Source: a virus (taxonomy: Duplodnaviria; Heunggongvirae; Uroviricota; Caudoviricetes). Taken from it: a stretch of 12,599 nucleotides of DNA. The notes under the pieces were generated by a model, which worked only from the letters and a program-made list of their open reading frames with translations, was not told the DNA's origin and searched no databases. A program made the translations under genes and the position numbers. The DNA is taken from positions 1-12,599 of the IMG/VR virus record IMGVR_UViG_3300050007_000314; one strand, given 5' to 3'. Below are positions 1 to 6,466 of the stretch, piece by piece; position 1 is the stretch's first letter, and every line of letters begins with the position of its first letter.

Positions 1-723
1 TAAGATCGCCCACATCAGCGGCTGTCGCCGCGCCCCCATACCCGTCAGCATAGTGGTGTAGAGCGAATCTGTGGGATGTTCGTGATACTCGTCGACAATC
101 GCACAGTGCGGTGAAGCGCCGTCACCAGGGTTACCAATCAGCGGCTCAAAACGCGCGCCATCCTCTGGCCGGTTCAGGTTGGACGCATTAACCTCGATCC
201 CGAACGCTTCCACCAGCAGCGGTGTACGCTTACACATCAGGCGAGCGGGTCTGAATACTTCCCACGCCTGCTTTTCAGTTGTGGCCCCGGAATATACTTC
301 AGCGCCAAACTCGTTATCACAGGTAAAACAGTACAGCGCCACACCCGCCGAAATAGCTGATTTCCCGTTTTTACGCGGTATCTCAGTGTAAACCTCGCGA
401 AAGCGACGAAGCTTCGAGCCTTTCTGGACCCAGCCAAAGGCGCAGCACACAATAAACAATTGCCATGCCTCCAGGGTTATCGGCATCCGCTTGAATGCCC
501 ACTCTCCTTTTGTATGTGGCAATAACTGGATAAATTTCGCAGCCTTTTCTGCCATGTCTTTATCGAAACGGTAACGAAATTTCTTACTCTTTTCAGCCGC
601 CATGTCATCGATATGACGCTGGCAGGCCTGAATGACAAACTGGCACGCCGGGATTTTCCCCCGCACAACGTTGCGGGCGTATTGATTCGCGGCGTTTACG
701 TTGGGGTACGATTTCCGGCTCAT
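1..723 (-). CDS. Phage terminase large subunit (TerL), N-terminal ~240 codons; gene runs off the left edge of the window
   Basis: Minus-strand frame is open from ATG at 721-723 to position 1 with no stop. It is absent from the ORF track only because it has no stop inside the window. Translation [29 protein letters not shown]...[20 protein letters not shown]...[35 protein letters not shown] has a Walker A-like NGKS and Walker B-like IVDEYHE, typical of terminase ATPase domains. Start ATG overlaps the terS stop (ATGA at 720-723). Confidence 0.85.
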
Positions 724-1217: not shown

Positions 1218-1343
1218 AAGCGACACTCCTGGTTAAATTTCATTTTTCGCGGGTATAAAAATACGAGGAGGCGGGCAGTCCGGAAGGCGCGCGGTCGCAG
1301 AGATTTGACCTCCCCCTACCCTGGCTGATGATGACATTAATTC
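1218..1343. other. HNH-terS intergenic region; candidate cos (cohesive end) site
   Basis: A 126-bp non-coding gap between the HNH endonuclease stop and the terS start, where HK97-like cos phages place cos. It contains a GC-rich core (gaggaggcgggcagtccggaaggcgcgcggtcgcagag, about 1265-1302) flanked by AT-rich sequence (gggtataaaaatac). Position and composition only; no cut site can be determined from sequence. Confidence 0.3.
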
Positions 1344-1758: not shown

Positions 1759-1962
1759 CTAGTCGTCGAGTTGTAACACACCGTGCTCAAGTGACTCGGA
1801 ATAGGCAATCAACCCGGTGTACTCAGGGATAACCTCACCATCATCAGCTTCGAATTCCGGGATTGTCCCAGTGGTGATGGTGTATTTGGGCTGACCATCT
1901 TCTTTCGCAAAGGCTGCCAGGTATTCAATCTGTTTTGCTGTAAGAACTACCGTCATGTTCAT
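1759..1962 (-). CDS. Hypothetical small acidic protein (67 aa)
   Basis: ORF with ATG start and GAGGA RBS-like motif about 6 nt upstream. Product is D/E-rich (MNMTVVLTAKQIEYLAAFAKEDGQPKYTITTGTIPEFEADDGEVIPEYTGLIAYSESLEHGVLQLDD). No family recognised. Confidence 0.5.
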   Translation of the reverse strand: MNMTVVLTAKQIEYLAAFAKEDGQPKYTITTGTIPEFEADDGEVIPEYTGLIAYSESLEHGVLQLDD

Positions 1963-3312: not shown

Positions 3313-3685
3313 CTGAACCTCCCCGGCGCGTTATCAGCGCCACCAGCGAGCCGACATCCTGATTATTCAGGAACGTCAGGATTTTGACGGCTAAAGCAGA
3401 AACGATTACGGCGCCAATGGCATCCAGTGGTTTATCACTGTAGCCGGTCGCCTGAGCCAGCTTTGAACCCACCAGCCCGGAACAAAGGATCCCCGCGATA
3501 TACGACACCAGAAAATATGCCAGCCGACGCGTTGCACTCAGGTCAGCAGCCGTTGCAATGTAAAATACAGCTCCGGCAAATGCACCAAACACCACGCCAT
3601 AATCGGTTCCGGAAAGAAATCCATAGACGCTGGCCCCCGTCAGGACACCACCAGCCAGCCCAGTACCGGAAATCGGATCGGACAT
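3299..3685 (-). CDS. Holin-like membrane protein (128 aa), first gene of the lysis cassette
   Basis: ATG at 3683-3685 with GAGGGGG RBS. Gly/Ala-rich polytopic membrane protein (GLAGGVLTGASVYGFLSG..., VVFGAFAGAVFYIATA..., LAYFLVSYIAGILCSGLVG..., AIGAVIVSALAVKILTF). Function inferred from position; no specific family recognised. Confidence 0.55.
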   Translation of the reverse strand: MSDPISGTGLAGGVLTGASVYGFLSGTDYGVVFGAFAGAVFYIATAADLSATRRLAYFLVSYIAGILCSGLVGSKLAQATGYSDKPLDAIGAVIVSALAVKILTFLNNQDVGSLVALITRRGGSGGTK

Positions 3686-4944: not shown

Positions 4945-5940
4945 TTAAGCTTTCGCAATTACGCCGATCGACAGCGCCCGATCCATAAAACGCAGTAGCA
5001 GCTCAAGCTGCGTACCATGCTTCTGCTCGAATGCTGGTACATCGGCGTGTAACTCGTCGTGGCACTCTCTGCACAGAGGGATCACGAAGAGGTCATGGGC
5101 TTTTGTTGCTGTACCACCCATACCGTGCCCTACGATATGGTGCGGATCATCTGCTGGCCGTCGGCAACACTCACAGGGTTGTGTTTTAACCCAGCGGGTG
5201 TACGTCTCATTTACCCAGCGGCGACGTTTTGGCCTGAGCATAAAAGATTCCGGGGACTCCGGATCGACGGTTAGCGTCAGTATTGCCTTTTGGGTTTCCA
5301 CATCCAGGCTGTCAGACCGCCGAGCTGGTAACGTATCAATCGACCTGGCTTTTTCCTGCATAATGCTGATGGCCGGCGGCATAGGTACGATGTCACTTTC
5401 CCGGTAAACAGATAATAATGGTTCGTCTGGCAACCGAAGTGCCCGTTGCGCCATTCCTTCGGTGACAGCATCAGCGACACCAGACTGAACCGCCCACCAG
5501 CAAAGCTCGGCTAAAGAGAGGGAGCGCTCTTTGTTGTGGCCAAGCCCAACCAGTACGGTATCAACAATCCATTCGGCAACATTGCTCAGCGCAAGCGCCT
5601 GTAATCTCTCCGTTGACTGACCGCGCAATTTGTTATCGCAGTGCCAGCACACCACTAACGCGCCAGGAGGATGCCATAGTGTTGTTAGCTCGGCATGATG
5701 GTAGTCAGAAACAGGGTACTGACACTTTTTAACGCGCTGACGAAGCCAGTACTCAAGCCCGGCCATACCACCAGCAGCAGTAATTACCCGTTCATCGGTG
5801 AAGAAAGTGTGAAGGCTGGCATCCTCCAGTAGCGGTTGCCGTGCATCGGGGATCCGACCAGACGGAAGCCTGGCCATGTTTTCAGGCTCACGCTCAACGA
5901 GCACACGACCTGCAGGGGTAAGTAAGGCTCTCAATGCCAA
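4945..5940 (-). CDS. DUF968-like phage protein (YdfU-like) with C-terminal Cys/His HNH-like zinc-binding motif
   Basis: 331-aa ORF. C-terminal region PCECCRRPADDPHHIVGHGMGGTATKAHDLFVIPLCRECHDELH resembles an HNH/zinc-ribbon nuclease-like motif. Placement between the Nin-like region and the Q-like gene matches recalled DUF968 genes in lambdoid prophages. Start is uncertain: TTG at 5940 or ATG at 5875-5877. Confidence 0.6.
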   Translation of the reverse strand: MALRALLTPAGRVLVEREPENMARLPSGRIPDARQPLLEDASLHTFFTDERVITAAGGMAGLEYWLRQRVKKCQYPVSDYHHAELTTLWHPPGALVVCWHCDNKLRGQSTERLQALALSNVAEWIVDTVLVGLGHNKERSLSLAELCWWAVQSGVADAVTEGMAQRALRLPDEPLLSVYRESDIVPMPPAISIMQEKARSIDTLPARRSDSLDVETQKAILTLTVDPESPESFMLRPKRRRWVNETYTRWVKTQPCECCRRPADDPHHIVGHGMGGTATKAHDLFVIPLCRECHDELHADVPAFEQKHGTQLELLLRFMDRALSIGVIAKA

Positions 5941-5944
5941 CCCC

Positions 5945-6466
5945 TTATACCGTCAGATCTTTAAATTTCTGTACGGCCTTCCCCATATCCGCCATTGCAT
6001 CCACAAACTCATCAAACTTACGGCTTGCCATTCCATAAGCCTGTAGGATTTCAAGTTTCAGAGGATCGAGTTGTTTTTTGATTTCAGCTCGGTCACCGGC
6101 CTTTTTTTCAGCTTCTTCAGCGGCGCGAATGAGGGCTTCAGCCTGCTTGCGTAATTCTTCAGGGGTCACGGTTGACTTATTCATAGTGGCTTCCTTCAAT
6201 GGCTTCGACGACGCAATAACCGGCGCCACGGATTTATGACCAAATTTAGGGTGATGCAGGGTTGTTGTCCTGCCGTCATCAGTGACACAGAGCAGGCTGT
6301 TTTCGCGGATGATTTCGATCAGGGTTTCTTTATCCTTCCGACTCAACGAGCTATAAGCTGATACCTTGTGCGTCAGATGGGTAAGAGTTGCCCCATCGGG
6401 TTGTTTCTCAACAAACCGTTTAACCCTGGACAATACTGGCTGAAGGTGCGGAGGGGTCACTCTCAC
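5945..6466 (-). CDS. Hypothetical protein (173 aa), translationally coupled to the upstream antirepressor-like gene
   Basis: GTG start overlapping the stop of the upstream gene (GTGA at 6463-6466), with a G-rich RBS-like stretch upstream. C-terminal part is a charged, helix-prone region (EELRKQAEALIRAAEEAEKKAGDRAEIKKQLDPLKLEIL). No family recognised. Confidence 0.5.
   Translation of the reverse strand: MRVTPPHLQPVLSRVKRFVEKQPDGATLTHLTHKVSAYSSLSRKDKETLIEIIRENSLLCVTDDGRTTTLHHPKFGHKSVAPVIASSKPLKEATMNKSTVTPEELRKQAEALIRAAEEAEKKAGDRAEIKKQLDPLKLEILQAYGMASRKFDEFVDAMADMGKAVQKFKDLTV

Follow-up and report, generated by a model that had tools for sequence, protein, structure and literature searches.

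Does the non-coding gap between the gene for an HNH endonuclease and terS, the gene for a small terminase, hold the cos site of a lambdoid prophage, and if so, at which bases would the phage DNA be cut? The question arises from the window, by which we mean the whole 12,599-nt stretch of viral DNA analysed here, and from a sequence-only reading that had placed the cohesive-end site of a prophage in this gap, with the HNH gene beside cos and upstream of terS and terL. The comparisons set out below suggest that a lambdoid prophage, probably of a Citrobacter, has its cos region in this gap, where it is served by an HK97/SfI-type machine composed of an HNH protein, a P27-family TerS, and TerL; resting as it does on sequence comparison, we give this reading a probability of roughly 0.85. 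The type of site, a cos with 3' overhangs, is already well known from HK97 and SfI, so that the current understanding of cos packaging is unchanged and the value of the assignment lies mainly in annotation.

The gap and its genomic setting

PHROG and Pfam scans identify the window as a lambdoid right arm, which carries genes for a CI-like repressor, Cro/CII-like regulators, an O-like replication protein, a methyltransferase, RusA, and Ant, and continues with those for a DUF968/HNH protein, Q, two holins, a GH19 endolysin, and spanins, a 67-aa ORF, the HNH gene, the gap, terS, and terL. The succession of Q, holins, endolysin, spanins, HNH, gap, terS, and terL is the order of a lambdoid late region. 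The nearest relatives of the HNH-gap-terS segment are found in Citrobacter meridianamericanus, a C. freundii MAG, and Scandinavium (HNH 99% identical, TerS 93-99%); together with the best protein match of TerS, a C. freundii protein of 98% identity, they point to a Citrobacter-like host. Among complete E. coli genomes, the window found no match at a coverage of 80% or above.

Two neighboring features of this arm may be recorded in passing. The 67-aa ORF (1759-1962, minus strand), situated between the spanin genes and the HNH gene, matches PHROG 9518 (E=9e-39) and has no Pfam match; at its junction with the upstream side of the HNH gene, a 42-nt stretch (1718-1759) shares 95% identity with non-coding DNA of phi80 (44296-44337), a phage that carries this sequence although its cos is of the lambda type. 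A second HNH-type protein of 331 aa (4945-5940, minus strand), assigned to PHROG 96 and to DUF968 in its E. coli relatives, is encoded directly upstream of the Q antiterminator gene and is unrelated to the packaging HNH protein.

The gap measures exactly the 126 bp that had been claimed for it, between the HNH stop codon (TGA, 1346-1344) and the terS start codon (ATG, 1217-1215), and the HNH gene, gap, terS, and terL follow one another as the sequence-only reading had described (Table 1). The GC-rich core to which that reading drew attention (1265-1302) is borne out as well: its G+C content is 76%, as against 36% (1218-1264) and 46% (1303-1343) in its flanks, and across the 12.6-kb window just 0.2% of all 38-bp windows are equally G+C-rich. 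The string singled out within the core, ggcgcgcggtcgc, is present (plus strand, 1286-1298), but it falls in a spacer where conservation is among the poorest in the gap, with a mean identity of 53% to 11 related phages versus 83-97% in the flanking blocks. It is the adjoining segment (1268-1277), still inside the core, that is the homologue of an experimentally mapped cohesive end.

Table 1. Features of the HNH-terS region in window coordinates. Identities are means over comparisons with 11 of the aligned phages; signed positions are relative to the predicted cut.
Feature	Coordinates	Strand	Matches, position, and conservation
HNH endonuclease gene, 116 aa	1344..1694	-	Pfam PF01844 E=2e-10; PHROG 144 HNH E=3e-39
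HNH gene, final 100 nt	1446-1347		mean identity 73%
HNH-terS intergenic gap	1218-1343		126 bp, non-coding; ORFs on minus strand
Stretch right after HNH stop codon	1343-1322		mean identity 46%
Upstream box GGGTAGGGGGAGG-TCAAATCTCTG (G-run + box)	1298..1321	-	about -54 to -31; mean identity 83%
Variable spacer CGACCGCGCGCC, 12 nt	1286..1297	-	mean identity 53%, lowest of the blocks downstream of the G-box
Wider core block TTCCGGACTGCCCGCCTC	1285-1268	-	mean identity 86%
Predicted cleavage core GGAC-TGCCCGCCTC	1268..1281	-	conserved motif GGACYGCC(N)GCC; aligns with HK97 TGACCGCCGCC
Predicted 10-nt 3' cohesive end TGCCCGCCTC	1268..1277	-	homologue of SfI TGCCCGCCCC
A/T-rich block ATTTTTATACCCGCGAAAAATGAAATTTAA	1233..1262	-	+6 to +35; mean identity 97%
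terS Shine-Dalgarno AGGAG	1226..1230	-	8 nt ahead of ATG; kept in alignment
terS, P27-family small terminase, 165 aa	720..1217	-	Pfam Terminase_4 PF05119 E=8e-21
terS, first 100 nt	1217-1118		mean identity 92%
terL 5' part (large terminase, ATPase domain), cut by window edge	1..723	-	Pfam PF03354 E=3e-22

Genome ends of related phages and the predicted cut

Deposited phages were searched by BLAST, and linear records cut within the gap were rejoined end to end before alignment. The region was matched in the Shigella phages SfI, SfII, SfIV, and SfV, the Salmonella phages ST64B and 118970_sal3, the E. coli phages SKA5 and vB_EcoM-720R4, Klebsiella prophage-derived phages, and Edwardsiella EPP-1. 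Once the ends had been rejoined, 13 sequences could be aligned across the whole gap with no large indels, and 12 phages from E. coli, Shigella, Salmonella, Klebsiella, and Edwardsiella have HNH-terS gaps that align block by block with that of the window. More distant alignments extend to Burkholderia phi644-2, Vibrio H20, and HK97, and a search with the gap alone also recovered phi644-2 (record positions 6-35) and Vibrio H20-like phages.

The record ends of HK97, SfI, EPP-1, and phi644-2 all fall in one column of this alignment, the column that corresponds to window 1268|1267. At least three of these four phages have ends tied to virion-DNA data; for phi644-2 they are the deposited record ends. 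For SfI, virion DNA was sequenced by run-off from within HNH and terS toward the ends, and in comparison with the prophage the reads left a 10-nt gap, 5'-TGCCCGCCCC-3' (PMC3636060), and the same 10-mer closes the SfI record; as the reads left a gap and not an overlap, the 5' ends would be recessed, which is to say that the overhangs would be 3'. HK97 DNA likewise ends in 10-nt 3' overhangs (PMC9410871), and the EPP-1 record, described as 'corrected using PhageTerm' (PMC11043334), ends in TGCCCGCCTC, identical to window 1277-1268. Joined end to end, the phi644-2 and HK97 records each display the same architecture as the window gap.

Two further results concern the placement of HK97 in this alignment. 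The published account of HK97 names T16, the C:G pair 21, the A:T pairs 24-29, and a 9-bp A-tract (PMC11331095), and position 1 of the HK97 record can be equated with the published +1 because T16, C:G21, and an A-tract at 23-31 fit the record. In addition, a profile HMM constructed from 56 distinct family cos regions, HK97 excluded, and run with nhmmer matches the left half of the HK97 cos (-79 to -4) with 23.7 bits and E=4e-7 in a 40-kb search space, and aligns HK97 GACCGCCGCC to window GGACTGCCCGC. In HK97, the left half alone is statistically detectable by the family profile.

With four deposited ends in one column, the likely cut can be placed at window 1268|1267. From this homology, the minus strand is predicted to be nicked between 1268 and 1267 and the plus strand between 1277 and 1278. 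The putative overhang matches its SfI counterpart at 9 of 10 bases, the single difference being a C to T, and EPP-1 and sal3 carry the window variant; at the overhang position of the IMG/VR loci, the CCCC form TGCCCGCCCC was found 81 times and the CCTC form TGCCCGCCTC 13 times. The homology of the gap to HNH-terS regions with mapped genome ends thus supports the earlier suggestion that cos lies here. The packaged genome would likely have its left end from 1267 and a right end carrying the overhang 1277-1268, coordinates of use for prophage mapping, for the design of end-specific PCR, and for the reading of induced-lysate coverage.

A cos in this gap might nonetheless be cut at other bases, and two places come into consideration. 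The records of SfV (NC_003444, L001), SfIV, and VIT_AJPSC all start 17 nt upstream of the shared end column, at the base equivalent to window 1284, so that a boundary at 1285|1284 would give an end such as TCCGGACTGC; the other place is the center, TCCGGA, of an imperfect palindrome with 14-nt arms (1271-1292). We regard either cut as unlikely. The paper that measured TGCCCGCCCC directly in SfI termed the cos of SfV only 'postulated' (PMC3636060), the ends of HK97, phi644-2, and EPP-1 agree with those of SfI, and the left arm of the palindrome belongs to the variable spacer and shows no conservation. The deposited 'ends' of SfV and SfIV are probably not the real cut. The palindrome itself, whose arms are 79% complementary, extends over the spacer and into the beginning of the core, and the lack of conservation in its spacer arm makes it lineage-specific.

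Two observations on deposited termini stand apart from the mapping at 1268|1267. The ends of IMG/VR contigs, considered as independent termini, proved uninformative, most matches being prophages inside genome-derived contigs. The terS ORF of EPP-1 (L013 48-653, the first CDS) carries a tandem duplication of about 36 codons near the start of the record, which may be an assembly or re-circularisation artefact close to the terminus.

Conserved blocks and the proteins that may read them

The pattern that emerges from the alignment consists of three blocks, namely a G-run/TCAAATC box, separated by a variable spacer from a GGACYGCC core, and a T-run with the 20-mer CCGCGAAAAATRAAATTTAA; it is kept as DNA in the window (1233-1321) and in loci L023-L077 and L080-L199. 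The A/T-rich block is 97% identical among the phages compared, more than the adjoining coding DNA (73% for the end of HNH, 92% for the start of terS), and within it ACCCGCGAAAAATGAAATTTAA spans +14 to +35. HK97 TerS binds at +15 to +29 and needs a C:G pair beside a flexible A-tract (PMC11331095). The position and composition of the A/T block match this site, with its C:G step followed by an A-tract, and by analogy we propose the block as a cosB-like binding site for the small terminase, which makes it a testable candidate TerS site outside HK97. The 14-mer of the core (1268-1281) occurs only once in the window, and the spacer upstream of it (1286-1297) varies in sequence between lineages. The box farther upstream is kept, as a G-run with TCAAATCTCTG, in 56 distinct family sequences, and as G-run/TCAAATC is also present in HK97 (GGGGGGGGGATCAAATC), phi644-2, and H20. 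We propose that it is a recognition element on the TerL/HNH side or a termination element. That the box is common to the window and HK97 despite different TerS families suggests that TerL or HNH reads it, and not TerS; its position recalls, by way of speculation, the cosQ of lambda.

Conservation of this kind bears on the possibility that the gap is a mere expression signal, such as the terS ribosome-binding site or the leader of a late transcript, or else the dead cos relic of a defective prophage that no longer packages. A good AGGAG does stand 8 nt ahead of the terS ATG, but the conserved blocks reach about 90 bp upstream of this ribosome-binding site, and the same architecture recurs at loci with no terS behind it (L030, L036, L042, L046, L063, L077, and L166), which argues that what has been preserved is the DNA itself and not a leader of terS. 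With regard to a relic, the prophage, of which only 12.6 kb are visible, could be defective; against this, the HNH gene, terS, and the part of terL in the window are intact ORFs, 79-99% identical to their relatives. Both versions of this alternative appear quite improbable to us.

The flanking proteins fit a cos region of the HK97/SfI type. The 116-aa HNH protein is probably the accessory factor for cos cleavage of HK97-type packaging machines, a role suggested by its sequence: it is 79% identical to the HNH protein of SfI and distantly similar, in a pairwise comparison, to HK97 gp74 (30% identity over 71 aa, E=6e-6). The HK97 protein stimulates cleavage by TerL at cos (PMC9410871). Over its first 240 aa, TerL shares 91% identity with the SfV protein, and its pairwise similarity to HK97 gp2 is again distant (31% identity over 131 aa, E=1e-10). 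The TerS proteins of the window and of SfI share 87% identity. BLASTP, hhalign, and a profile search of PDB sequences detected no similarity between the window TerS and HK97 gp1, and PF05119 has no match in gp1.

Among 23 P27-family TerS proteins, whose overall identity goes down to 50%, a basic N-terminal arm (consensus ...AGNPGKR) and a C-terminal motif are nearly invariant, in parallel with the near-invariance of the DNA 20-mer CCGCGAAAAATRAAATTTAA. In the HK97 TerS, a nonamer, Arg7 of the N-terminal arm and Arg128 of the C-terminal helix clamp the A-tract (PMC11331095), and the conserved arm and motif of the P27-family proteins are candidates for a similar 'arginine clamp'.

These protein relationships also bear on whether packaging might proceed by a headful (pac) mechanism in which the gap plays no part in defining ends. 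Assignment of TerL to a family does not by itself prove a mode of packaging, and nothing specific for headful was found; TerL, however, shares 91% identity with its counterpart in the SfV/SfI group, which is reported to have defined ends (PMC3636060), and an HNH gene directly upstream of terS is a hallmark of HK97-type cos machines. We consider headful packaging very improbable. It is scarcely credible that the G+C-rich core serves, between HNH and terS, as a transcription terminator or as an RNA element, for although a G+C-rich segment followed by a T-run bears a superficial likeness to an intrinsic terminator, the gap has no terminator-like site on either strand, its RNA folds with an energy no better than that of shuffles (z=0.24), and Rfam gives no match at E<=1.

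Two other searches of the gap were negative. No promoter-like site was found on its coding strand, and the sole promoter-like match, on the plus strand (1305-1332), is within what shuffled sequences yield. In SfI-like sequences the G-box (GGGGCGGG in SfI) pairs perfectly with the overhang (CCCGCCCC) as an inverted repeat, and this pairing shows no covariation: in 37 diverse sequences, 69.9% of cells pair, as compared with 73.3% in shuffles, and slid registers are equally good. The complementarity is compositional, and a covariation reading was rejected.

If the gap is indeed a cos region of the HK97/SfI type, a sequence of events can be drawn up by analogy. On concatemeric DNA, TerS would bind the bendable A/T-rich block (+6 to +35, 1262-1233), and TerL, stimulated by the HNH protein, would introduce two nicks into the core 10 nt apart, generating the 3' overhang TGCCCGCCTC (1277-1268). 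The new left end would lie at 1267 and packaging would proceed into terS and terL, downward in window coordinates, such that the HNH side with its G-run/TCAAATC box would enter the capsid last. From the analogy with known systems we infer the activity of the prophage, the exact nicks, the assignment of proteins to blocks, and the direction of packaging.

Relation to known cos systems and distribution of the pattern

The cos of SfI, and of the group that it forms with SfII, SfIV, and SfV, occupies the same place between HNH and terS as the putative site in the window, and the flanking DNA is alignable throughout. The downstream block TTTTTATACCCGCGAAAAATGAAATTTAACCAGGAG of SfI is identical to that of the window, the cohesive-end 10-mer agrees at 9 of 10 bases within a conserved context, and TerS, TerL, and HNH are closely related. 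The two sites differ in the CCCC of SfI, which is CCTC in the window as in EPP-1 and sal3, in the G-box (GGGGGAGG in the window and GGGGCGGG in SfI), and in the 12-nt spacer; the hosts differ as well, being Shigella for SfI and probably Citrobacter for the window prophage.

With HK97 the window shares the gene order HNH-cos-terS-terL, homology of the HNH and TerL proteins, the shared end column, and similarity of the cos DNA, which in the left half extends to the G-run, TCAAATC, the spacer, and the GACCGCC core. An ACCCG step and an A/T tract lie 15-35 bp downstream in the window, where HK97 TerS binds. The sequence family of HK97 gp1 differs, however, from that of the window TerS (PF05119), the downstream block reads CCCGCGAAAAATGAAATTTAA in the window and CCCGATTTTTTTAGTTTTAA in HK97, and the distance from HNH to the right end is 319 bp in HK97 and about 66 bp in the window. 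EPP-1 and phi644-2 encode P27-family TerS proteins with the same N-terminal arm and C-terminal motif as that of the window, even though the phi644-2 protein is only 53% identical to it, and the hosts and the remainder of the genomes of these two phages are different.

The cos of lambda is composed of cosQ, cosN, and cosB, has a 12-nt 5' overhang, and is cut by Nu1/gpA. It shares with the window site a common logic, consisting of a nicking site, a bendable region for TerS binding downstream, and a separate conserved element upstream, and lies like it at the junction of lysis and head genes in a lambdoid genome. The predicted overhang of the window, by contrast, is opposite in polarity and 10 nt long, and it is associated with an HNH accessory nuclease and a TerS of another family. 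Lambda cosN, GGGCGGCGACCT, has no match at <=2 mismatches, and with TerS belonging to PF05119 and an HNH gene adjacent, the site is not of the lambda type.

How widely the pattern occurs was assessed by scanning one genome per bacterial species, as well as IMG/VR, for the 20-mer CCGCGAAAAATRAAATTTAA of the A/T block. Whole cos-type architecture surrounds 48 of the 55 matches in bacterial genomes, a terS homologue lying 30-100 nt downstream in 39 of the 48 and an HNH homologue upstream in 36. These matches are distributed among Enterobacterales, Burkholderiales, and Vibrio, whereas the other 7 are chance matches in unrelated taxa; the Burkholderiales hosts that carry the three-block pattern have about 65% G+C. 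In IMG/VR, essentially all of the 121 matches are genuine, and at least 103 of the 121 are flanked by an HNH gene on one side and a terS gene on the other. The 20-mer is thus a near-specific probe for such cos sites, and in combination with the three-block pattern it provides a simple signature by which the cos sites of P27-TerS/HNH phages can be located. A full-text literature search for the conserved DNA strings returned only unrelated matches to primers and aptamers.

This distribution raises the further possibility, which we advance tentatively and hold to be rather doubtful, of a modular cos 'grammar' common to the HNH-dependent packaging machines of Enterobacterales, Burkholderiales, and Vibrio. 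The left half of the site, made up of the G-run, TCAAATC, and the GACYGCC core, travels with TerL and HNH, and those proteins would accordingly be its readers; it would perhaps act as a signal for termination in the manner of cosQ. The right half, CCGCGAAAAATGAAATTTAA (+16 to +35), would travel with the P27-family TerS, whose arm and C-terminal motif would grip it with an arginine clamp like that of HK97. Copies of cos alone beside non-terminase genes would, on the same modular scheme, be satellites that borrow packaging machinery.

Copies of this kind are at hand. Complete cos-like regions with neither HNH nor terS alongside were found at L030 (6280-6391), L036, L046, L063 (5060-5172), L077, and L166, and further cos-like regions of this sort at L042, L052, L061, and L073. 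One terminase-less group, from Enterobacter, Kluyvera, Atlantibacter, and Lonsdalea, has an SSB gene, a gene for a protein of ~1000 aa that matches 'tape-measure' PHROGs, the cos, and a PRiA4_ORF3-like gene; at L042 (Edwardsiella hoshinae), a D5-type primase-helicase is encoded near the cos-like region. Such cos-only loci may be satellites that borrow the packaging machinery of a helper phage.

Two variants of the module itself complete the survey. In Xenorhabdus prophages (L032, L055, L062, L065, L066, and L072), an inverted repeat of 7-9 bp brackets the core, as in CCCAAGG-ACCGCCA-CCTTGGG, with an apparently compensatory variant, CCCAC...GTGGG, at L066; these loci have 40-70 extra nt between the 20-mer and terS, and the repeat is absent from the lineage of the window. 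Lastly, the IMG/VR contig L097 carries two nearly identical HNH-cos-terS modules (3556-3575 and 6427-6446), 2.87 kb apart and in the same orientation, which could reflect duplication of the packaging module or else an assembly that is tandem or chimeric.
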